From contig JAISCS010000030.1 in NCBI GenBank assembly GCA_031265365.1, forward strand, positions 1-56,282: 56,282 nt of DNA. The letters are read 5' to 3'. This stretch comes from Verrucomicrobiales bacterium (GTDB lineage Bacteria; Verrucomicrobiota; Verrucomicrobiia; Methylacidiphilales; JAAUTS01). The notes below the pieces were generated by a model. That model ran no database searches. It saw only the letters and a program-made list of their open reading frames with translations, and was not told where the DNA came from. Each line of letters starts with the position of its first letter. Position 1 is the first letter of the stretch. Of this stretch, positions 4,040 through 15,748 are shown piece after piece. A program made the position numbers and the translations under genes.

Positions 4040-5116
4040 TTATTCCGCGCCGCCAGCCTTCGCCTTTTTCGCGTCACCGTCAGCGGCGGGGCCGTCGAGC
4101 TTGGCGAGCAGGGCTTTTTCCACGCGGGCGTAGAGGTCGGCGTTGTTCTTCAACTCTTCCTTCGCGGCATCGCGGCCCTGAGCCATTTGCACGCCCTCGA
4201 ACGACAGCCACGCACCGCGTTTCTCGATAACGTTTTGCTCAATTGCGAGGTCGAGCAGCGAGCCGGTCTTGGAGATGCCCTCGTTGTACATGATGTCAAA
4301 CTCCGCCTCGGTGAATGGCGGGGCGACTTTGTTTTTCACCAGCTTGACGCGCGTGCGGTTGCCGGTGACGGTGCCGTCGGCCTGCTTGATGGCGCCGATG
4401 CGGCGGATGTCCACGCGCACGCTGGCGTAGAATTTCAGCGCCTTGCCGCCCGGCGTCGTTTCGGGGTTGCCGAACATCACGCCGATTTTCTCGCGGATTT
4501 GGTTGGTGAAAATGCAAATGGTTTTCGACTTGCTGATGATGGCGGTCAGTTTCCGCATCGCCTGGCTCATCAAGCGCGCTTGCGAACCGACCACCGCGTC
4601 GCCCATCTGCCCCTCCAGCTCGTTCTTCGTGACCAGCGCGGCGACGGAGTCCACCACCAGCACGTCAATCGCGTTGGAGCGAATCAGCGTCTCGGCGATG
4701 GTCAGCGCCTCCTCGCCGGAGTCGGGTTGCGAGACCAGCAACTCGTTCATGTTCACGCCCAGCTTCCGCGCGTAGCCCGGGTCGAGCGCGTGCTCCACGT
4801 CCACGAACGCCGCCGTGCCGCCGCGTTTCTGCGCCTCGGCGACCACGGTCAGCGTCAGCGTGGTTTTGCCGGACGATTCCGGGCCGAAAATCTCGACGAT
4901 GCGCCCGCGCGGGAAGCCGCCCACGCCCAGCGCGCGGTCAATCACGACGCTGCCGGTGGGGATGACCTCGATTTTCAACTTCGCCGCCTCGTCGCCAAGG
5001 CGGAGGATGGAGTTGTCGCCGTACTGCTTGACGATGGACTGGATGGCGAGGTCGAGGTTTTTGCGGTCGCGGCTGTCAGCGGCAGCGGCGGGTTTGTTTT
5101 CGATTCTAGGCGGCAT
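4040..5116 (-). CDS. recA: Recombinase RecA
   Basis: Walker [11 protein letters not shown] and full-length RecA similarity ([30 protein letters not shown]-like). ATG at 5116 (MPPRIENK) is preceded by aagga. Confidence 0.97.
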
Positions 5117-5444
5117 ATATAATCCTTGGTTAAATTTAGGGCAAAGATTTTCCACGCTGACGACAGGATGTCCAGCGCGAATTTGTAAAACTTTGCGTGA
5201 TATTCGTGAACAAACGGCGTGAATGTAAATATTTGTAAAACCGTCTGCATTTACTCTTGTGTCAGCGGGTTAATATTTTGGGGAAAACTCAGGTCATGAA
5301 GAAGTCAAAGCGCGACACGATAGGCGTGGATAATTTAAGGGCTGGATGAGTGGGATGGCCTGTTGTAAAATATCAAATCGCTGAAATTCTCCAGTACTTA
5401 TGGACAAGCCACATAAAACCGAAGAAGAAGAAGGAAAACGCGCA

Positions 5445-5768
5445 ATGAATAATATTAATTTGCCGCACTCAATCCCGTGTATAAAAATTCCCGATGAAAT
5501 ATGGTTTAATATTGTAAGACTAAAACGGTATTCCACAGGTTTTCTAAGTGCAGTAAGACTTATTAACGGCACAATTTTAGAAGACATGATTACCTGTAAT
5601 CGAGGATACATTTTAGGACGTTTTGCGGAAGGACTTGCGGGCGGGCATGGTCATATTGTCAATTCAATGTTGACATTTAAGACGGAAGATATTAGCGCAA
5701 TTAGAGTGCCCGCATTCCATTTTTGGCAATCTCGAAAGTGGATAAAACTGGAAGGAATTACTACTTGA
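5445..5768 (+). CDS. Hypothetical protein in an AT-rich insert between cinA and recA
   Basis: ATG at 5445 is preceded by gaaggaaaa. The GC content is low and I recognise no motif. Its orientation opposes the flanking operon. Confidence 0.4.
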   Translation: MNNINLPHSIPCIKIPDEIWFNIVRLKRYSTGFLSAVRLINGTILEDMITCNRGYILGRFAEGLAGGHGHIVNSMLTFKTEDISAIRVPAFHFWQSRKWIKLEGITT

Positions 5769-5810
5769 ACGAGGACGGTTGTTATTGGTTGTAAAAAATG
5801 AACCGTTGAC

Positions 5811-7049
5811 TCATAACTCCACCAACTTCAATCGCAGCAAATTCAGCGCGAATTGCGCGGCGGTGTGTTTGAAATCGGAGCGGTCGGGGACGAGGAGCTG
5901 ATGGTGTGTCTCAACGCGCGGCTCACCGTCAGCGGCGCGCCACGCGAGGCCAGCGTGCAGCGTGCCGACCGGTTTTCCCACCGTGCCGCCGTCGGGTCCG
6001 GCAATGCCGGTGAGCGCGACCGCCAAGTCGCAGCCGCTGACGGTCAGCGCGCCAAGCGCCATTTCGCGCGCGCACTCGGCGCTGACGGCGCCGTGCTGGC
6101 GCAAGGTTTCGCCGCTGACGTTCAACTCGTCTTGCTTGGACTGGTTGCTGTAGATGACCCAACCACGTTGCAGAACGGCAGACGCGCCGGGCACGTCAGT
6201 CAACCGGCTCGCCACCAGCCCGCCGGTGCAGGATTCGGCAGTGGCGATGGTTTTGTTTTTCGCGCGGGCGCTGGTGATGACGGCTTGCTCCATCGTCGCG
6301 TCACCGTCAGCGTAAACGGCGTCGCCGAGGATGGCGTGGGCGGTGGCGGCGGCTCGATTGACCAACGCACCGTCAGCGGCGATAAAACGCAAATCCACCT
6401 CGCCAAGCCGCGCGCAGTAGCCGATGTCAATGCCATCGCCGAGGTCGCACACGGCTTGCTCGACGCGCTCTTGCACTAACGATTCACCAATGCCGTACAC
6501 CCGCAACGTCCTGACCGTCAGCGGCGGTGTGTCGGCGAATAATTTTCGCAACACCGGCAGCGCGTAATTCTCAAACATCGGCTTCAATTCACACGGCGGT
6601 CCCGGCAGACAAAACACGTGCTTGCCGTCCTTTTGCAACCACAAGCCGGGCGCGCTGCCGTGGTCATTGGGCAACACCGTCGCCCCGCGCGGCACGAACG
6701 CTTGCGCGCGGGTTAACGCGCCCGGCACATGGTGACGCCTGGCGAAGTAGGCGTGAATTTTATCCAAAATTTCCTGATGAAACTCCAGCGGCACGTCGAA
6801 AATCCTAGCGATCAAATCGCGCGTCACATCATCCGAAGTCGGCCCCAAGCCGCCGCTGACCAGCACCACCTCGCTACGGTTCAACGCCTCACGAATAGCG
6901 TCCCCAATCGCCACCCCGTCCGGCACAATCGCCGCCCGCGCCACGCTGACACCCAGCGGCAACAGTTGTTCCGAAAAATAACCGAGGTGCGTGTTCAACA
7001 TCCGCCCCAGCAACAACTCGCTGCCGGTGTTAATGACTTCCAGCTTCAT
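5811..7049 (-). CDS. cinA: CinA-family competence/damage-inducible protein (MoCF-binding domain + PncC-like nicotinamide-nucleotide amidase)
   Basis: MKLEVINTGSELLLG...VVLVSGGLGPTSDDVT at the N-terminus; C-terminal TAESCTGGLVA motif. Confidence 0.93.
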   Translation of the reverse strand: MKLEVINTGSELLLGRMLNTHLGYFSEQLLPLGVSVARAAIVPDGVAIGDAIREALNRSEVVLVSGGLGPTSDDVTRDLIARIFDVPLEFHQEILDKIHAYFARRHHVPGALTRAQAFVPRGATVLPNDHGSAPGLWLQKDGKHVFCLPGPPCELKPMFENYALPVLRKLFADTPPLTVRTLRVYGIGESLVQERVEQAVCDLGDGIDIGYCARLGEVDLRFIAADGALVNRAAATAHAILGDAVYADGDATMEQAVITSARAKNKTIATAESCTGGLVASRLTDVPGASAVLQRGWVIYSNQSKQDELNVSGETLRQHGAVSAECAREMALGALTVSGCDLAVALTGIAGPDGGTVGKPVGTLHAGLAWRAADGEPRVETHHQLLVPDRSDFKHTAAQFALNLLRLKLVEL

Positions 7050-9511
7050 GCAAAGCCCGCCATATCCGCCAAACGAAATTCTTGCTCCGCTACCGGACGG
7101 TTGATTTTACTATCCCATGTCACCGTGAACCAGTGGGTGTCATCGTTTAAATAAAGAATCATCGCCCGCCCATAGACGCGGTGCTCAGCCAGCACTTTAG
7201 GCGCCTCATTCTTATCCGTAAAATCTCGTTTGGTATCCACCAATAATATTTTATCCTCGGTACGCCGACCGTTGATGCCAATGATGAAATCTGGGAAAAA
7301 TCCTTTGCCGTCGGTGCGCAGAACATTCACCGACCAAGGTTCATGCGGTTCATTGCGGTGCCACCACGCCACGATGTTGTTAGGCTCACGGTCTAATTTT
7401 TCAACGAAAAGACGTTCCCAAGTGTTCAAGTTTGGCGGCATGACGCCATAAACATTACGCGGCGACACTGTCAGCGGCCTGTCACTTTGGAGTTCTTTTG
7501 GTAATTCTTCAGTCTCGACAATTTCCATGTGCCGGGCCGTCGCTTCCTTTTGAGCGTTGCGCAATAAGTCAGGATACGCGGCGATGATTACATCCAAAAA
7601 ACTGGCCACTGTTTCCGGTTCACCAGCCTGCGGCATCGCTTCCTCACGCATCACCTCGCGCATTTTTTGCAACAATACACGGCGCAATTCACGGGCGTCG
7701 AACAATTGGTTTTTCAGCAAAAATTTTTGCGCTATTAGCGCCGCGTGTTCTGGTGATACGTCGGCCGCGTATTTGAATTCCTGCTGGACGACACCCGTAA
7801 AAATCTCCAAGGTGCGCTTTTCCACCGACACTTTGTTTTTTAGCGCTTCAAATAACGCGCGGGTGGAGACCTTGAACAGATTGGCGCATTCCTCCTCAAT
7901 GGCCGCATTATCAGTGCCAGCCTCTTGGGATTTGAATTTTCGCGGTACATCCCCGCGCAGTGAACAACAATGGTTCCCATTGTGGTTTTTTGTCCCGCCG
8001 CCCGTTGCGGTCGCTGACGCTGACGGTTTGGGTGCGCCGTCGAAAAATGCGCCGAAGTCAAAACTATCATTTCGTGCGCCGTTGCTGACGGTGGTGGCAA
8101 AGTTATCATGTTCAGCGTTGCCAAATCCCGCGTGTTGCGTTTCCCCTTGCAACACGAAATCAGTCTGCCCGCCATGCTCCACGCCGCTGACGATGGCAGT
8201 ACCGGCGCCAATGTTCATTCTGACCAAGGCGTTGCTGACGGTGGCGTAAGCGGTTTGGATTTGGTTGATGCGTTGCCCGGCCTCGTCAAGCCCGGTCTGC
8301 GTCTTGGGGTCGGCGAGGAATACATAACCATGAGCGAGTTCGTCCGGCAGGGTTTTATTGCGCGCTCTCGCTTGCAACAACCGGTGTGTTCGCAAAATTC
8401 GCCCCACCAACTGCACGCCAAAATCAGCGTCGCGGCTTGCCCGTGTGGAAACCAGCGTGAACGCGCGCGGGGCGTCGAAACCCAGCGCCACCGCCATTTT
8501 AAAAATCAACACCTCGCGCTGCTCGTCGTTCGCCAATGCCAGCAGACCGGCGTCCGGCTCCTCCGCCGTGTGCGTGGCGATTTGTTTCTCGGCGAAGCCC
8601 AACTCCAGCAAACGCTGCCGTAAATTTTCCACCTCACGCGCACCATTGCCCGCCTGTACCAGCAACAGCGGGGTCAACGGGATTTTTAATTCCGCCAACC
8701 GCGCCTTGAGTTGCCGGTGCGCCCGTATCGCGTCACGCAGAGCGGTGCCCGGCAAATCCACCAGCGAACGTTTTGTTTCCTCCACAAAATACGCCATGCA
8801 TTTGACTCCGCGCTTGATAAGTCCGGCGTCAACCGCGTCCGCGCGGCTGACGCTGACGCGATGCAATTCCGCGATGCCAAGCGCTTTTTCAAATTCGCGC
8901 ACGTCGCGGTCATCCGGCGTCGCGGTAACCAAAATGCAATAATCGGGGCGCAAAATTTCGTGAAAAAATTTCGCCGCCTGCGTGTCTTTGCCGAAGCCGT
9001 GATGCGCCTCGTCCACCACCACCCCGAGGCGAAAACCTTGCTCGCGCAGACTCACCGTCAGCGTGTCCACCGACGGATTGCTCTCGCTCTCGCGGCGCAA
9101 ATTGCGCCGGTCAGTCACGCGTGTCGCCACGGTTTGCCATGTGGTTACGAACACATCGCCGGCGCGATTGTTATCCAGCGAGCGGTCATGAGCCAAATCG
9201 CGCAACCGCAATCCGGCACATTGTTCGCGCAAAAAAGCCGCTGTCTGTCCAACCACGCCCTTGAACGGCGCGAACCAAAACCACACGACTTTTTCCTCGC
9301 GGGAAAAATTTTCAATAATATTCCCCGCCATCAGCGTCTTGCCGCTGCCGGTGGGAGCTTCGATGAGCAAATAACCGTTGTGCTTGACCACCGTCGCGCG
9401 CCGCCCCTCATCGTCAGCGGCGATATCCAGTTGTCGCGCTGCTTCCGTGAACAATGCAACACCACTGCCAATGGCTTTTTTCTGAAATTCGACGGGGGTT
9501 TGGAGTTTCAT
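7046..9511 (-). CDS. res: DEAH-box helicase with C-terminal PD-(D/E)xK-like nuclease module (type III restriction Res-like subunit)
   Basis: Helicase motifs EAPTGSGKT, VVDEAHHG and VTATP. The C-terminus carries FFPDFII...ILLVDTKRD. Its stop overlaps the cinA ATG (ATGA). Confidence 0.8.
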   Translation of the reverse strand: MKLQTPVEFQKKAIGSGVALFTEAARQLDIAADDEGRRATVVKHNGYLLIEAPTGSGKTLMAGNIIENFSREEKVVWFWFAPFKGVVGQTAAFLREQCAGLRLRDLAHDRSLDNNRAGDVFVTTWQTVATRVTDRRNLRRESESNPSVDTLTVSLREQGFRLGVVVDEAHHGFGKDTQAAKFFHEILRPDYCILVTATPDDRDVREFEKALGIAELHRVSVSRADAVDAGLIKRGVKCMAYFVEETKRSLVDLPGTALRDAIRAHRQLKARLAELKIPLTPLLLVQAGNGAREVENLRQRLLELGFAEKQIATHTAEEPDAGLLALANDEQREVLIFKMAVALGFDAPRAFTLVSTRASRDADFGVQLVGRILRTHRLLQARARNKTLPDELAHGYVFLADPKTQTGLDEAGQRINQIQTAYATVSNALVRMNIGAGTAIVSGVEHGGQTDFVLQGETQHAGFGNAEHDNFATTVSNGARNDSFDFGAFFDGAPKPSASATATGGGTKNHNGNHCCSLRGDVPRKFKSQEAGTDNAAIEEECANLFKVSTRALFEALKNKVSVEKRTLEIFTGVVQQEFKYAADVSPEHAALIAQKFLLKNQLFDARELRRVLLQKMREVMREEAMPQAGEPETVASFLDVIIAAYPDLLRNAQKEATARHMEIVETEELPKELQSDRPLTVSPRNVYGVMPPNLNTWERLFVEKLDREPNNIVAWWHRNEPHEPWSVNVLRTDGKGFFPDFIIGINGRRTEDKILLVDTKRDFTDKNEAPKVLAEHRVYGRAMILYLNDDTHWFTVTWDSKINRPVAEQEFRLADMAGFA

Positions 9512-9517
9512 GGGAAG

Positions 9518-10216
9518 TTAGTTTAATTGAATCCAAAAGTGGTGAAGTTGAATGGTTGGAGATTTGCAATCAGCCGTATTACGGGGGTGTGAAGAAGTTG
9601 AATATGCTAATCCATTACATTTACTAAATTGGATATTCAATAATTTTTCGCAAGGATTCCACAATACCGGGGCGTCATTTGCCAGTTGGTCAATCCAACC
9701 GTTGATAATAGGATACCAGTCTTTGGGTGTTTGTTCCTGAACATATCCAACGATAATAGCCTTTTCATGTTCTTTGCCATGTTTCCCAAGTTTAAACCGC
9801 TGAATGCCACCAGTTATTTCTCCATTTTCGCCAGTCACATATTCCCGCTCCCTGTCCTTGGTAGGCGCTGGAAGACGCTTTGCTTCTATCAAAAGGATAG
9901 GTTGTGAATAATTATAACTTCTGCCGCTAACCATCACAGTCTCTCGCGGCTTGGCGGCAATATCGACAGAGCGCGAGTTTTCTTCTTCATCCTGTTCGTG
10001 GCGAAAATATATCATGCGATGCGAAATGGTTAAAAAATCACTAAGATTACCATTTAATTTTCTTTCAGGCTTGGTGTGTTTGCCTTTTAGCGCGTCATCA
10101 TTACTCCACGGCAAAAGAGAATTATAAACAAATTCGATAGTTTCTTGGATAAGTGAATCAGGGGGAATTATTTCTTCGCTGGGGCGATTAGAAAATGTGG
10201 GGGGTGGAAGTGCCAT
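9518..10216 (-). CDS. Hypothetical PD-(D/E)xK-fold nuclease candidate
   Basis: SVDIAAKP...(about 24 aa)...ILLIEAKRL fits the D-(x)n-E-x-K pattern. The gene is AT-rich and lies 3 nt downstream of the methyltransferase gene. Confidence 0.5.
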   Translation of the reverse strand: MALPPPTFSNRPSEEIIPPDSLIQETIEFVYNSLLPWSNDDALKGKHTKPERKLNGNLSDFLTISHRMIYFRHEQDEEENSRSVDIAAKPRETVMVSGRSYNYSQPILLIEAKRLPAPTKDREREYVTGENGEITGGIQRFKLGKHGKEHEKAIIVGYVQEQTPKDWYPIINGWIDQLANDAPVLWNPCEKLLNIQFSKCNGLAYSTSSHPRNTADCKSPTIQLHHFWIQLN

Positions 10217-10219
10217 AAG

Positions 10220-13093
10220 TCAAAAACCTTGTTGATACAAATAAGCCAGTGTCTCATCCGCATCCCAAATGGCTGTGGATTTTATCCAATGGCGCAAAAG
10301 ATTTGGTTTGACGATGATTAATTTATCATTTTCAAAATAATGGAAAATTCGACTGGTTTGAAAAACAGAATTATTTTTATGAATAATAGTTTGCAATTTT
10401 TCATCCCAATTTTCCGGCCAGTCTATTTTACTGTTTTTTTCTCCAAAATAAAACGCTTGATAGGCAAGTCCGTTTGAACAATCTGACGGTCCAAGATGCA
10501 AATTGCGATAAACACTGCCCAGCAGCCATACAAACAAGTCCGCATAATCTTTTCTTATTTCACTGTTGGCAGCCTGAGTAAGAACTTTTGAATTTTGGCC
10601 GACTTGAATAAGTTCGGCCATATAATCTAAAATATCATCCAACAAGATTTTTTCCCATCGAGACAAATTCATGAAGCGCATGTCCTCAGTCCATGGAAGT
10701 TCCTCTAAATCGTGTTTCAAGATAGCGGTGGATTTTCCAACCAATACTTGCGAACTTCGCAAATAGCAAAATGCTCTTAGCATTTTTTTATTCTTCTCAA
10801 ATACTCGTGAAAATTTCAAAAGTTTTTCAGTATCAAATGATGGCGCGTTGATTGAAATGATTTTATGTAGGAACGTAAGATACCCGTCATTCTCGCCCCA
10901 AAAAATAGTCGGTAATGTCTCATTCTCCTTGATTAAAACCATTGGCGGGGTAAAACGCTCCTTACAGCGAGGCGCGGTAAATTTTTTCTCGTGAACAATA
11001 TTTATCCATTCCCTATCCAATCCTTTTCCAGTAAATGCATCTGTAGGCAAAAATGGCTTGCCGGTCAACCAGTCAGCGAATTTTCGTTTGTCCGCCTTTC
11101 CGTTTGCAGGCGGATTACCCGCAATAAATCCTTCTCCATGAGTCCAACCCTGTTCATTCCAATACATTTTTAACGTTGGATACTTGGAGATTTCCTTAGA
11201 AATATGAACCAACCGCCCGCCTCCCAAAAGATTAGCTTTCCACACTGAAGGAAATTCTTCCGCCAACCGTTGCGGCACTTGATGCCAGTCATAATGGTCT
11301 AGTTCAAAATTTACTCGTTCATGCAGGCTCTTGGTGCGGCGAAAAGTCAGATGGGAAATTTCATGTTTCTTCTCCGGCTTCCCTTTCTTGGAAAAAATCG
11401 CCACAGCCTTGGCATCCGCGCTTTCAAACAGATTCCGAATGGAGACAAAATCCAAAATTGTATCCACCGTATTCTCAGAAATCCATTTTTTAAGAAATTC
11501 TTGCGTGTTGGAATTGTAAAGAAAACCGGGCGGCTGAATAAGGCACATTTTTCCGTCCAGTGCCAGCAAGGTTGCAGCTTCCTCAATAACGCGATAAGAA
11601 ATTTGATTATCAGGAATGGGCCTCGAATTGTCTTGACGCGTTGCCCGCGCCGCCTGTGTTAATTTGGACTTGAACGGTGGATTGCCCAAAATTGTGGTAA
11701 ATCCATTTTCTGCAAGATTACGAATTTGCTCAAGGTTCGCAAATACATCACCAACGATGATATTTTTACCGACGAGCTTGTCAAACGTCAGTTGTTCCCA
11801 AATAATTCTTGGGTGCAAGGCATCGCACACTGCCAGTGCCAAATTGAACGCCGCCACATGAGCGGCATCTTCATTGAGTTCAGCGCCAAAAATGGAATCC
11901 CTCAGCATTTTTTGCAGCACCGGAACTCCCGGACGTTTTTCCCATCCATTTTGCTTTTTCCAATAATGAACCAGCCGCCGAAACGCGCCGACTAAAAAAA
12001 TTCCGGAACCGCAGGTCGGGTCAAAGATAGTCTCCCGTCCTGTGATTCTTTCATGAGGCAGCGCGTAATCCAGCATTAAATCCACAACCAACGGCGGTGT
12101 AAATACCGCGCCGTCTTTCTTCTGGGCAAAGTGTTGATACAAATGGCTAAGAACTTCGACCGGAATATAATTAAAACTGTATTGTTGCCACAAATACATT
12201 TGTTGTTTTAATGTCCGCGCTTCGATTAATGTGGCAAATTGCTTCAAATCCTCACGGGTGAATGACACCTCAATACCAAAAATATCACCGTTAAATTTAA
12301 GTTTTAATTCGTCCAGCATTTTTTCAACATCTTGGACATTGCCGCTGGCAAGAACCTTTAAAAAGCTGGTTGCGTTGTCGCTGAATTGAGCAAACCAATC
12401 TTGCGCGAACACACCCCTGTCCTCCAGATATTTTGCAAGAATGAACAATAGCAACAGGCGGCGCATCAACGGATTTTTCGCGCCTTTGATTTTTGTGTCC
12501 ACTTCAACAACCGCTTGAATCAGAGATTGGTGAGCAGCCTTGTCCGCGCATGCCCATTTTGCATTTTCAGGCGCGTCCCAAAAAGTTCCGTCACTCAGGC
12601 GATAGGCGGAAAAGCGTTTGGTTTTGGCGGCGTCAAGCTCGCGGGAAACATCTGAAATTATTTCCAGATTTTCCTTCGGATTGTATTGAGGCTGGGAACT
12701 TTTGGCATTCCAGAAATCTGGTTCCGCCGCGCATCTCAAAACATCCACGCGCGTCGGCCACTCGACATAAAACAATGGAACTTTACCATTCAGCCAAATA
12801 CGATGATGCAACTCGGCAATCTGTTTGTCTGTGTAACGATTGTCACTATTGTCAAGGATGTAAGCAACGGCTTGTGAAGAGCGACCGTCGGCAAATCGGC
12901 GAAAAAAAACGTAATCAATGGGAATATTTTTTGTTTTTTTATCCCCCTCCAAAATCCGAGCCTCATATCGAGCGGCTTCTTCCGCAATAGAACAAGGAAG
13001 CAAACGGTCATCTCTCACCGAAACCAAACCGGAAAGCTGTGGTTTGCCTTTGGGCGGCGGTGCAAGATGAAGTTGTGACAATAGCTTGTTCAT
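10220..13093 (-). CDS. Large gamma-class N6-adenine DNA methyltransferase (Eco57I/type IIG-like) with long unknown N- and C-terminal regions
   Basis: Motif I FDPTCGSGIFLVG precedes motif IV ILGNPPF. The protein is 957 aa and AT-rich. I could not recognise a nuclease motif in the N-terminus. Confidence 0.8.
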   Translation of the reverse strand: MNKLLSQLHLAPPPKGKPQLSGLVSVRDDRLLPCSIAEEAARYEARILEGDKKTKNIPIDYVFFRRFADGRSSQAVAYILDNSDNRYTDKQIAELHHRIWLNGKVPLFYVEWPTRVDVLRCAAEPDFWNAKSSQPQYNPKENLEIISDVSRELDAAKTKRFSAYRLSDGTFWDAPENAKWACADKAAHQSLIQAVVEVDTKIKGAKNPLMRRLLLLFILAKYLEDRGVFAQDWFAQFSDNATSFLKVLASGNVQDVEKMLDELKLKFNGDIFGIEVSFTREDLKQFATLIEARTLKQQMYLWQQYSFNYIPVEVLSHLYQHFAQKKDGAVFTPPLVVDLMLDYALPHERITGRETIFDPTCGSGIFLVGAFRRLVHYWKKQNGWEKRPGVPVLQKMLRDSIFGAELNEDAAHVAAFNLALAVCDALHPRIIWEQLTFDKLVGKNIIVGDVFANLEQIRNLAENGFTTILGNPPFKSKLTQAARATRQDNSRPIPDNQISYRVIEEAATLLALDGKMCLIQPPGFLYNSNTQEFLKKWISENTVDTILDFVSIRNLFESADAKAVAIFSKKGKPEKKHEISHLTFRRTKSLHERVNFELDHYDWHQVPQRLAEEFPSVWKANLLGGGRLVHISKEISKYPTLKMYWNEQGWTHGEGFIAGNPPANGKADKRKFADWLTGKPFLPTDAFTGKGLDREWINIVHEKKFTAPRCKERFTPPMVLIKENETLPTIFWGENDGYLTFLHKIISINAPSFDTEKLLKFSRVFEKNKKMLRAFCYLRSSQVLVGKSTAILKHDLEELPWTEDMRFMNLSRWEKILLDDILDYMAELIQVGQNSKVLTQAANSEIRKDYADLFVWLLGSVYRNLHLGPSDCSNGLAYQAFYFGEKNSKIDWPENWDEKLQTIIHKNNSVFQTSRIFHYFENDKLIIVKPNLLRHWIKSTAIWDADETLAYLYQQGF

Positions 13094-13105
13094 GGTGAAA
13101 CGAGT

Positions 13106-14767
13106 TTAAGTTTGCGTTTTTTTGCGAGGTAAGTCAACTGTTCCTGTCAAGCCAAATTTCCGCGCGAGGCTTTCCGGTATCGGTTCATGAGCGGCTTTGC
13201 GGGTACGAATATGGCAGCACAACAAAGCAGTTTGCCATGAATAAATCAACGCGCTGTCGCAGTTTTTCAGCACTTTGCGAAGCGCGGGAAGTATGCGTGT
13301 GGTGAAACGCGGCACATACACCAGCGCCACGCCGCCGATTTGCGCCCATGCTAAACCACCATCAGCGGCGTAGGGCGAAAGTTGGTTGTGATGCATGAAT
13401 TGCAACGAATGCCAAACTTGCGCGTGCTCGATGTTCACCAACCGTCCCGATTTGATGCGACGACAACGCAGGTAAGCAAAGTTGCCGCCAAGTCCGGGCG
13501 TATCGCCATAACCCTCAATGACACGCCGCACACGGCGGGCACACACATCACGGCATAGATTTTTGTCAGGCTCGCTGACGGTGGACTCGGTGTTGGAAAC
13601 CAAAATAAAGCGCCGCTGACCTTGGTTCTCGGCGTTGAGTTTCAAGACCGCGTGTGCCGTGGTGCCGCTGCCGGCGAAGAAGTCCAGCACGAGGTCACCG
13701 CTGACAGTAGCAATGCGGAGAATGCGTTCAATCAACGCCACTGGTTTTGGTGTGGAAAACGAACGCGCATCCTCGGCAAGAATTGTCAGAATTTCTTTTT
13801 TAGCTGTATCATTGTGCCCAACATCATCAAACGTCCACCAAGTTGTTGGCACCACACCGTCAGCGTTGCGGAGCATGTGCTTGTAACGCTTGAATGATGG
13901 CGTTTTACCGTTGCCGTCTTTACCCCAATAAATCAAGCCATTGTCTGCGTTGCGGAAATGTTCTTCCTCTGAATACGCCCAAACACGCGTTTTTTTGGGC
14001 CAAATTCTTTTGCCGGTTTTTGGTTGAATGATTGGATAATAAAGATTAGGGCGTTCTTCCGCACTCTTCGGGCACGTGTAGTCGCTGCATCGAAAAATAC
14101 CTTTTTCGTCATTGAATCGATACATATCGTCCTTGTCAGCGGTGCGGGGTAAAAGATTGCGCCGCCACAAGTCGGACATTTGATAAACCAACACGTATTC
14201 GTGCATCGGTGCGATGGTTTTGTGGTCGTTGGATGATGCGTAACGCTTCTGCCAAATACACGACGCGACAAAATTATTCTCGCCGAACACGCGGTTCATC
14301 AACAACCTCAGCGACGCGACTTCATTGTCATCAATCGAAACAAAAATCACGCCGTCCTGCCGCAACAAATCCTTCGCCAGCGTCAGTCGCTGCCACATAA
14401 ACTCCACCCATGTCGAATGCCGCCACGCATCGTTAGCGTCCACGAAACGGTCATTATACACAAAATCGCGATTGCCGGTGTTATAGGGCGGGTCAATGTA
14501 GATACATTTCACTTGCCCGGCATAAGTCATACGTAGATGCCGTAGCGCATCAAAATTGTCACCCTCAATGATGAGATTGTTCCAAGGTTCACCGCTGACA
14601 CTCAACTCCGGGTCAAGGTCGAGCGCAACGAAATCAGAATTGAGCGCACGGTCACGCTCAATCTCACTGGCTTCCCAAACCAAGCCAAAGCGCGTGGCGT
14701 CGCGCCGGTCGCGCGCCTCAAGCAAGCGTTGTAATTCATTTCTGGACAAATGGTCATATTTTCCCAT
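13106..14767 (-). CDS. mod: Beta-class N6/N4 DNA methyltransferase, type III Mod-like
   Basis: Motif IV IYIDPPYNTGN precedes motif I LDFFAGSGTTAHAV. ATG at 14767 (MGKYDHL) is preferred over the ORF maximum at 14806. Confidence 0.85.
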   Translation of the reverse strand: MGKYDHLSRNELQRLLEARDRRDATRFGLVWEASEIERDRALNSDFVALDLDPELSVSGEPWNNLIIEGDNFDALRHLRMTYAGQVKCIYIDPPYNTGNRDFVYNDRFVDANDAWRHSTWVEFMWQRLTLAKDLLRQDGVIFVSIDDNEVASLRLLMNRVFGENNFVASCIWQKRYASSNDHKTIAPMHEYVLVYQMSDLWRRNLLPRTADKDDMYRFNDEKGIFRCSDYTCPKSAEERPNLYYPIIQPKTGKRIWPKKTRVWAYSEEEHFRNADNGLIYWGKDGNGKTPSFKRYKHMLRNADGVVPTTWWTFDDVGHNDTAKKEILTILAEDARSFSTPKPVALIERILRIATVSGDLVLDFFAGSGTTAHAVLKLNAENQGQRRFILVSNTESTVSEPDKNLCRDVCARRVRRVIEGYGDTPGLGGNFAYLRCRRIKSGRLVNIEHAQVWHSLQFMHHNQLSPYAADGGLAWAQIGGVALVYVPRFTTRILPALRKVLKNCDSALIYSWQTALLCCHIRTRKAAHEPIPESLARKFGLTGTVDLPRKKTQT

Positions 14768-14846
14768 GCGACATTTGAAACTAGCCAGTGAACACTGGCA
14801 CTTCAATTACTTATTACCACTGATTATGACTGGCACATACAAAAAA

Positions 14847-15748
14847 TCATTCGCCGGATTTCCCGCCGGTGGTGAAAGTCTGCCACGCTTTCGCAAAAGC
14901 CTCCTCCGGCAGCCACGTGGTGGTCTTGTTGCTCGCGGCTTGCCCGCTTTTGGCGTAAATCTCATGGTCAGCGAGGTTGCCGAGCCAGGAAATATCGCCG
15001 CCGGTCGCTGATGATGAGCGCCATGCCGTCACGCCGCGCAAAAAGTCACGCCCTAACACCGCCGCTTGCCCGACCTCGTGGCCGCTGTTCGGCTCGAAGG
15101 CAAAGCACCACACCGCGCCGCGCCGCGCCGGCCGGCGGTGTAACGCTCGGTGATAAGTTCCGTGCGCTCGCGGTCGTTCTCGCCGCCAATAAATAACGCG
15201 GGTACTTTCAACATCGCGCTGCGTGGGTCGTTGGTGTTCAGCGCTGACTTGACCAGCACGAAACCCGCCACGCGCTCCGGCTTCCAGTTGGCAAAATTGT
15301 ACGCGAAACCGCCGCCCGCCGAGTGCCCCCACAGCAACAACGGCGCGGTGGCGAGCTCCAGTTTTTGCGTTTGCGCGGCGAAATGTTTCAGCGTGTCGAG
15401 CAGCGCCTTGCCCGACCAATTTTCCACGCGGACATAATGCGGCGCGCTGCCGCCCTTGTTGTTAACCAGCCGGCACGCGAGAATCGCGCACCGCTGCTCG
15501 TCGGCGAGCCGCTGCCACGCGGCCTCATCCGCCATGCCGCGCCCGTCGCCGTTGTAACCGGGCAGCAACACGAGCGTGTAGTTAATCTCACCGTCAGCGG
15601 CGGGCAACCGCAGCCGAAACTCCGCCATATAGGGGTCGGGCGCGTTGTATTTATAATCCAGCGACTCCGCCACCGTCAGCGACGCGGCGAACGCTGACAC
15701 TGTCAGCGACAATAATAATTTCACTTTTTCACACATAATTTTTCTCAC
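14847..15748 (-). pseudogene. Secreted alpha/beta-hydrolase (esterase) interrupted by a frameshift
   Basis: Frame 1 (15053-15748) carries the signal peptide and the nucleophile elbow GHSAGG. Homology continues in a second frame (14847-15419) as ...VWCFAFEPNSGHEVG.... The frame switch falls within the GC repeat at 15109-15140. The true start may be MCEKVK at 15736. Confidence 0.7.

Follow-up and report, generated by a model that had tools for sequence, protein, structure and literature searches.

A two-gene restriction-modification-like cassette separates mod from res in a Type III operon of a Verrucomicrobiales bacterium

Contig JAISCS010000030.1 of a Verrucomicrobiales bacterium (GenBank assembly GCA_031265365.1), analysed over its whole length of 56,282 nt and called the window below, carries a Type III operon for restriction and modification (R-M) in which mod and res are separated by a segment encoding a 957-aa DNA methyltransferase (MTase) and a 232-aa protein. 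How did these two genes come to lie there, and when? A preliminary description of the window had taken them for a recent, compositionally foreign insert between long-resident genes. We favour a modified reading, with a probability of about 60%. The locus is a self-contained two-gene R-M-like cassette within a Type III operon and, as other organisms have the same nesting, represents a recurring embedded defence cassette and not a one-off recent insertion; in this genome it would be younger than the mod/res frame around it.

The AT-rich character of the segment was confirmed by the sliding G+C (GC) profile, by GC at third codon positions (GC3) and by codon-usage percentiles. GC of the cassette (9518-13141) is 0.43, with a range of 0.32-0.51 in 200-nt windows, versus 0.603 for the genome, and only 0.3% of the 3.6-kb windows of the 2.76-Mb genome are equally AT-rich. 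Per 500 nt, GC is 0.36-0.47 in 9518-13093, whereas res has 0.50-0.59 and mod about 0.51; the drop is sharp on the res side (near 9500) and softer on the mod side (near 13150). GC3 is 0.356 in the 232-aa gene and 0.424 in the MTase gene, i.e., at the 0.1-0.7th percentile of long open reading frames (ORFs; host mean 0.74), and for synonymous codon usage and GC3 both inner genes are among the lowest 0.1-2%. For mod and res, GC3 is 0.566 (7th percentile) and 0.625 (19th percentile), respectively.

The second compositional signal is the heptamer GTCAGCG, of which the window contains 195 copies (8.9 expected) and the genome 6994. The statement that the segment contains none of these oligomers was nearly right: there is a single copy (0.28/kb) in the non-consensus context CCAGTCAGCGAA, while 63% of the genomic copies read CGTCAGCG. 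The earlier counts for the flanking genes proved exact, with six copies in mod (3.5/kb) and seven in res (2.8/kb), or 3.1/kb for the two together, compared with 2.54/kb in the genome and 3.68/kb in the rest of the window outside the cassette. The inner genes, then, do not carry the oligomer at normal density. Under a uniform-density null, 9-13 copies would be expected in the cassette, and the probability of one or none is 1e-3 to 6e-5. Under a local first-order Markov null, enrichment is 4.7-fold in the insert vs. 19-30-fold in res, mod, cinA and orf882; this correction leaves 4-6 expected copies against one observed (p about 0.02-0.08). In the cassette there are 0.11 exact copies per one-mismatch copy, vs. 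0.31 genome-wide, which gives 2.8 expected copies (p = 0.23). As the motif is itself G+C-rich and its deficit shrinks on correction, it adds to the GC signal but is not fully independent of it. As regards its proposed use as a residency marker, the motif does mark the gene pool of the genus, mod and res carry it and the cassette is nearly free of it, but part of the contrast is an effect of composition.

The edges of the insert were mapped against relatives in which mod and res are adjacent. Such empty sites, with 4-7 nt between the two genes, were found in L017, L018, L019, L189 and L191 (L and G numbers denote our comparison loci and genomes); where close Res homologues of about 60-63% identity are encoded, mod lies directly upstream at a distance of 4-6 nt. 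Thus the empty site anticipated in the preliminary description exists, though not in close strains. In the relatives, Mod ends in FG(L/M)KG, immediately followed by the stop codon. In the window this stop is lost, and 11 extra residues (TVDLPRKKTQT) are encoded by the foreign leader. At the other edge (9518-9521), TAA is followed by CTTCCC and the res ATG, so that the TAA of the cassette occupies the position expected for the mod stop, 6 nt before the res ATG. The insert therefore spans approximately 9518/9521 to 13141 (Table 1); of the bounds given initially, 9518-13093, the right edge stands, and the left edge is moved to about 13141 by the comparison of Mod tails. No recognised repeat frames it: a direct repeat around the cassette (TTAAACT...CCATGAA on both sides) is suggestive but is not claimed; part of it codes for the conserved IQ(L/M)N end with its stop codon.

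Table 1. Features of the mod-res locus, in window coordinates.
Feature	Position	Strand	Remarks
Embedded cassette (leader, MTase gene and 232-aa gene)	9518..13141	-	GC 0.427; edges from the GC profile and from junctions mapped against relatives with adjacent mod and res
957-aa MTase gene	10220..13093	-	N6-adenine DNA methyltransferase of the gamma class; architecture MmeI/DrdV-like (Type IIG/IIL)
232-aa partner gene	9518..10216	-	candidate PD-(D/E)xK core
Cassette leader	13094..13141	-	also codes for the 11-residue C-terminal extension of Mod (stop 13106-13108)
Type III mod, 566 aa	13106..14806	-	DPPY and FxGxG intact; six GTCAGCG copies
Type III res, 821 aa	7046..9511	-	superfamily 2 helicase (GSGKT, DEAH) and C-terminal PD...D-x-K; seven GTCAGCG copies
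6-nt spacer CTTCCC, cassette stop to res ATG	9512..9517	-	like in form to the spacer of 4-7 nt between mod and res in relatives without a nest
Sole GTCAGCG copy of the cassette	11072..11078	+	non-consensus context
Whole four-gene block	7050..14858	-	absent from congener G004

The contig comes from a metagenome-assembled genome (MAG; 2.76 Mb, 213 contigs, 77.6% complete, GC 0.603), and in an assembly of this kind an AT-rich segment might have been mis-joined into the contig. This is very improbable, as the junctions are gene-precise, the reading frames are intact, and independent contigs from other samples have the same gene order and junction form. These contigs were found in the MTase tree, where the window sequence belongs to a seven-member clade (support 99/97) that includes L180-L183 and L012; most comparison loci are short metagenomic contigs. 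L182 contains the full nest, with identities to the window of 75% for mod, 67% for res, 62% for the MTase and 52% for the partner. In L183, L181 and L180 the order mod-MTase-partner is seen as far as the short contigs reach, L180 also retaining the first 41 codons of res. In L012 a pseudogene of the mod C-terminus and a 44-aa res N-terminus flank an intact cassette, the only one to match the window cassette at the nucleotide level (69-70% identity), and an extra gene is present at the start of res. Finally, in L100 of the same clade the cassette is un-nested and adjoins gyrA; an 18-nt putative mod relic upstream of it (15/21 matches) was rejected, being at the estimated chance level. The leader of 35-48 nt between mod and the MTase gene looks homologous in the window, L012 and L183, an indication that they go back to a single ancestral insertion.

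In every nest the GC of the inner genes is below that of the outer ones: 0.42 vs. 0.62 in L180, 0.50 vs. 0.63 in L183, 0.47 vs. 0.52-0.55 in L182, and 0.39-0.42 vs. 0.47 in L181. Relatives with the same gene order thus do exist, but none of them is uniform in composition. For the claim that the inner pair arrived recently the outcome is mixed. The composition step and the near-absence of the motif speak for it; against it, the nest is not unique and recurs in L180-L183 and, as relics, in L012.

Two minor features of these loci may be mentioned. The extra gene of L012 (6139-7019), encoding a HATPase_c_4 / winged-helix protein, is inserted just after the res start codon; on both sides of it lies an imperfect direct repeat (about 20 bp), CTACCAC..CCATGCGC(A/G)TCA. 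In L182 (1605-1721), mod appears to be frameshifted near its 3' end, the last ~40 residues matching in another frame, which reflects either a sequencing error or incipient decay.

The same junction also holds unrelated cassettes. First, in L188 the segment 951-5020, between mod (76-942) and res (5051-7552), encodes a Hachiman-like candidate defence pair with a HamB-like helicase, matching PADLOC PDC-M23A (1.8e-104) and PDC-M23B (E = 0), and its GC is 0.48 vs. 0.59-0.61 in the flanks. Second, in L190 (6912-7605, genome G427) a GxxExxY gene (TIGR04256, 1.5e-40), with repeats of AATCCTGT-type words on either side, lies between mod and res. The Res protein of the window groups with those of L182, L188 and L189, which represent three different junction states. 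The mod-res junction of this Type III family is a hot spot that has repeatedly accepted cassettes.

Outside Type III operons the inner pair is widespread. The survey covered 165 MTase loci from two collections (genomes and metagenomes), the nest loci L180-L183 coming from separate look-ups. The MTase and the 232-aa protein have hundreds of homologues each, found on shared contigs. A homologue of the 232-aa gene lies directly downstream of the MTase gene, on the same strand and at a median distance of 3 nt, in 154 of the 165 loci, and 10 of the 11 exceptions are cut by contig ends; no flanking mod or res was found in the 165 loci except in L098, a partial contig. The hosts belong to Verrucomicrobiota, Planctomycetota, Acidobacteriota, Nitrospirota, Desulfobacterota, Chloroflexota and Gammaproteobacteria, and several of the free-living pairs sit in defence or mobile islands. 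Judging by these gene neighbourhoods, the inner pair is an autonomous genetic unit, separate from mod/res, and the distinction drawn at first between the two is borne out, the pair standing alone in 154 of the 165 loci.

In 52 of the 150 loci that could be judged (L014, L016, L020-L031 and others), a gene for a LexA-family repressor (S24 peptidase) is located directly upstream of the MTase gene, often overlapping its start by 4 nt; the L016 copy passes the NCBIfam lexA cut-off (122 vs. 111 bits). The repressor gene is absent from all nested copies. Its presence suggests that the free-living cassette may be under SOS-linked control. In L098 (7944-13275, a Geobacter MAG), the cassette is directly upstream of a Type III-like mod with 38% identity to residues 42-229 of the window Mod, a second sort of proximity to Type III genes, unlike that of the nests.

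Could all four genes nevertheless form one obligate system, i.e., a Type III enzyme that needs a second MTase and a small protein? Their spacing is tight and operonic, with all genes on one strand, 12 nt from mod to the MTase gene, 3 nt from the latter to the 232-aa gene and 6 nt from there to res, and the gene order is conserved in at least five loci. However, more than 150 loci have the pair but no mod/res, and most of the 2464 homologue clusters (as judged from sampled contexts) have mod-res but no pair; moreover, in L012 the outer genes have decayed around an intact pair, and other cassettes are found at the same junction. We consider an obligate four-gene system improbable.

As for the inner proteins, the 957-aa MTase matches the Pfam families N6_Mtase (8e-22), Eco57I (1e-11) and MmeI_Mtase (3.5e-8) and, over residues 210-572, the PADLOC profile REase_MTase_IIG (2e-33). 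Motif I, DPTCGSG (358-364), and motif IV, NPPF (471-474), are invariant in 32 sequences. The protein is composed of an N-terminal nuclease-like domain, a helical linker, the MTase core and a C-terminal, presumed target-recognition region, and is thus similar in size and domain order to MmeI and DrdV (Type IIG/IIL). Its N-terminal 310 residues were modelled as an alpha/beta domain (predicted local distance difference test, pLDDT, 74), for which the best, non-significant neighbours were DrdV, Hjc, BamHI and RecU (E 0.19-2), DrdV being the top weak fold match; no match at the sequence level was found in PDB. The conserved residues of this domain are E38, D60 and D81-N82-S83. The canonical catalytic lysine is absent, and the D...E-x-K signature of PD-(D/E)xK nucleases was not found in the N-terminus. 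The nuclease domain of MmeI carries the canonical D...ExK, in contrast to the D60...D81-N82-S83 seen here. The initial impression that the MTase has no nuclease motif should be amended accordingly: a nuclease-like domain is present, but its canonical lysine is missing. Assignment to two other defence systems was rejected, as the scores were far below the cut-offs (BREX_2 PglX, 53.5 vs. 400 bits; MADS2, 44.7 vs. 720 bits) and no brx or mad partner genes are nearby.

The 232-aa partner belongs to a family of 842 clusters at 50% identity (exhaustive search), all of them stand-alone proteins of about 220-250 aa. D85, E111 and K113 are invariant in 35 sequences. In the AlphaFold2 model (pLDDT 87.2), with the order helix 51-65, strands 69-73, 86-90 and 108-115, helix 138-142 and strand 152-159, D85 precedes strand 86-90 and E111-A-K113 lies within strand 108-115; the predicted order of elements, together with D85 and E111-x-K113, would fit a PD-(D/E)xK core. 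No match was found in Pfam (all 35 members scanned), NCBIfam, PADLOC or PHROG, the PDB sequence profile was empty, and Foldseek gave no significant fold match (best E 0.23 in PDB, and 0.022 to an unnamed protein in BFVD). There is no fusion of the MTase and the 232-aa protein in the 842 clusters, the longest match being of 397 aa, and homology between the 232-aa protein and the N-terminal domain of the MTase was rejected (hhalign probability 0.2%). From its conserved residues, a nuclease role of the 232-aa protein appears plausible. Its proposed part as the endonuclease partner of the MTase agrees with the invariant D...ExK and the strict linkage, less so with a confident model that matches no nuclease fold, and is still an inference.

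Taken together, the strict linkage and the conservation of motifs suggest, as the most likely and most economical mechanism, an R-M system of a split, Type IIG-like kind. The large protein would bind a specific motif on host DNA by recognition and methylate it, and the small one would supply or complete the cleavage of unmethylated DNA. Such a system would differ from the single-chain Type IIG/IIL enzymes by its separate, obligatory 232-aa D...ExK protein and, in many loci, by the LexA-family repressor.

The outer genes are a Type III pair of the classical (EcoP15I-like) kind, with a beta-class Mod and a helicase-nuclease Res, mod being upstream. Mod matches PADLOC MTase_III (6e-109) and Pfam N6_N4_Mtase (9e-42), and IYIDPPYNTGN and DFFAGSGTT can be read in its sequence; it is 73-75% identical to the Mod of L182 and 70% to that of L190. 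Res matches Pfam ResIII (1e-11), and PADLOC REase_III at only 4.6e-6, with TGSGKT, DEAH and PDF...VDTK readable in the translation; the best of its 2464 homologues are 62-63% identical. All catalytic motifs are intact in mod, in res and in the MTase. Unlike classical Type III genes, mod and res are here 3.6 kb apart and not overlapping or separated by 4-7 nt, so that the usual adjacency is lacking in the window, and Mod bears the 11-aa tail.

All genes between 4000 and 18500 are on the minus strand, and the order of transcription is mod, MTase gene, 232-aa gene, res, cinA and recA; the res stop codon overlaps the cinA ATG (ATGA). Transcription of the nested pair presumably starts at the mod promoter and also covers res and cinA. 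A promoter and terminator scan gave terminator-like sites at shuffle expectation and as many promoter-like matches as expected for AT-rich DNA, and no sign of a transcription unit inside.

This mod and the MTase gene are both missing from the congeners G001-G004, and neither system was found in another relative of the genome. In G004 (L184, C46, 2322-2976) the whole 7.8-kb block is replaced by 655 bp, and the order is recA-cinA, a gene for a small secreted protein (~190 aa), an esterase gene and orf882, cinA having an upstream region of its own. The right edge of the difference between the window genome (G000) and G004 is exactly the cinA ATG. As G004 lacks all four genes, mod and res are accessory too.

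How long, then, have mod and res been in this genome? In core genes the motif gain specific to the lineage since the split of G000 and G004 is about 1.5/kb; the density in mod/res lies above this value and that in the cassette below it. Since the motif is genus-specific and 63% conserved, the 3.1/kb of mod/res implies a long evolution in that gene pool. The idea that mod and res are long-resident, or derived from a relative sharing the motif, is compatible with their native motif density, but the term resident fits them only as genes that evolved in the motif-bearing gene pool.

The main alternative to a younger cassette is that the four-gene composite was acquired as one block, in which case the contrast in GC and motif would be intrinsic or inherited and would say nothing about residence time. 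In one variant, rarer recombination with local alleles might shield the inner genes from GC-biased conversion and from the spread of the motif; in another, AT-rich DNA might simply contain the motif less often. Such a joint acquisition agrees with the occurrence of the same nest and of a GC step of the same sign in five other loci, in hosts of different GC, with the homologous leader at the left junction and with the absence of the whole block from G004. In addition, correction for composition leaves just 2.8-6 expected motif copies against one observed, and GC3 of mod and res in the window (0.57-0.63) is close to that in L182 (0.54-0.59). Low GC alone is no barrier to the motif, however, as it is 22-27-fold enriched in orf882 (GC 0.49) and mod (GC 0.51). 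Moreover, the similarity patterns of inner and outer genes are incongruent: the mod of L183 is closest to that of L180 (74%), but its MTase is closest to that of L182 (74%). Finally, the cassette subclade keeps a GC of 0.42-0.47 in hosts with GC from 0.38 to 0.60, and such constancy is typical of recently moved DNA. Acquisition as one block is, in our view, a credible but distinctly less probable account.

We therefore retain the reading of a recurring embedded cassette that is younger, in this genome, than its frame. The nest as such predates this genome and most likely moves, or is re-created, between homologous Type III operons, not having arisen de novo here; the cassette probably arrived by exchange between such operons, whether already nested or empty. 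Several observations weigh against this. The deficit of the motif is modest after correction for base composition, only about 4-5-fold (p about 0.02-0.23), and the GC3 of mod and res is itself low for this host (7th-19th percentile). The congener G004 lacks the whole block and not only the cassette, and the loci that share the nest have an MTase identity of only 57-67%, while the left leader looks homologous in the window, L012 and L183, so that the four genes could have entered jointly. No recombinase, att-like site or repeat that would explain a precise insertion was found at the window cassette, and the segments of mod and res next to the junction, the potential homology arms, are not markedly more conserved than neighbouring segments. 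Lastly, the assignment of the 232-aa protein as a nuclease has no fold or profile support.

A bolder scheme can be proposed, although we regard it as doubtful. The pair, with the LexA-family repressor where there is one, would be an undescribed, split, SOS-wired class of Type IIG-like systems, in which the large subunit would keep its degenerate nuclease domain as a scaffold for docking, the cutting being left to the small D...ExK protein. At the same time the mod-res junction of one Type III family would be a dedicated acceptor, where cassettes (this pair, the Hachiman-like PDC-M23 pair, GxxExxY) would be swapped by recombination between flanking homologous sequences, in this genus possibly fed by natural transformation with ACCGTCAGCG as the uptake signal.

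Defence genes within other defence systems are already known, for example PrrC inside the Type Ic EcoprrI hsd operon and BrxU inside the BREX system of pEFER. Defence genes embedded in multi-gene defence systems have been surveyed for Hma, BREX, DISARM and Type I R-M, where 96.7% have the same orientation as the host system (bioRxiv 10.1101/2024.01.29.577857), and PDC-M23, the insert of L188, is a candidate family of that 'guilt-by-embedding' study by Payne et al. The inner pair shows the features by which Payne et al. (2024) recognise embedding: it is nested between genes of a defence system, lies on the same strand and also occurs un-embedded elsewhere. It thus resembles the embedded systems in being an independently occurring module, co-oriented and with operonic spacing, here between R-M genes, and differs from those surveyed in that the host is a Type III system and the guest a second R-M-like pair. 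Embedding of one defence system in another is known as a kind; the Type III host and the uncharacterised family of R-M-like guests are the new part.

Mobile R-M units in Helicobacter and other bacteria have reportedly been described by Kobayashi and colleagues as inserted into operon-like clusters or with a long target duplication. The window cassette is similar in being a gene pair inserted without a dedicated recombinase, and the secondary insert of L012 is similar in its direct repeat of about 20 bp; unlike those units, the cassette has no convincing target duplication, and its junction is reused by unrelated cassettes.

These results extend 'guilt-by-embedding' to Type III R-M operons and indicate the junction of mod stop and res start as a place to look for unknown defence cassettes. 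They also define a widespread, uncharacterised R-M-like family of two genes (about 840 clusters for the partner), of which cultured carriers exist: Kolteria novifilia Pan216 (L081), Novipirellula rosea JCM 17759 (L091), Pseudohongiella nitratireducens (L014 type) and Coraliomargarita sinensis (P0151). Furthermore, a sharp step in GC and oligomer content within an operon is not in itself a date for an insertion in that genome, since the step moves along with the composite locus.

A by-product of the analysis is the exposure of a genus-specific, uptake-sequence-like motif in Verrucomicrobiota. The extended form of GTCAGCG is approximately ACCGTCAGCG(G). The 10-mer occurs in G000 in 919 forward and 913 reverse copies, i.e., strand-symmetrically, and in 1570-2466 copies in G002-G004; the fourth congener, G001, has only 44, and 20 genomes of other genera have 40 or fewer, with a reversed-sequence control of at most 12. 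The motif (e.g., 4848-4860, 6035-6049, 15692-15708) is present in every stop-free reading frame. Between G000 and G004, 17 of 27 copies (63%) are conserved in orthologous blocks that are only 68-90% identical. In mod and res the motif copies often fall on sites of amino-acid replacement when compared with the L182 homologues, and overlapping tandem and close inverted copies occur. By its distribution GTCAGCG looks like a driven signal acting at the DNA level, of the uptake-sequence kind and specific to the genus, and it reports evolution inside the gene pool of this genus. Like the DNA uptake sequences (DUS) and uptake signal sequences (USS) of Neisseria and Pasteurellaceae, it is present in thousands of copies, equally on both strands, in part of one genus, is conserved between species, lies inside genes in all permissible frames and is absent from foreign DNA. 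It differs from DUS in its host phylum; its density of 2.5 heptamers per kb is also higher than that of DUS, which is about 1 per kb. To our knowledge, no uptake sequence has been described in Verrucomicrobiota.

Approximately 3% of the 3.6-kb windows of the genome have at most one copy of the motif, many of them at a normal GC of 0.59-0.65 (contigs C113, C12, C13, C159, C204, C210 and others). Foreign DNA rich in GC, rRNA regions or contigs binned wrongly may account for them, and the motif may be usable as a check of binning. Another region of G000 with low GC and few motif copies, on contig C53 (6838-7431), contains a second large N6-MTase-like ORF (open frame of 1094 aa), with 37% identity to residues 244-434 of the 957-aa MTase.

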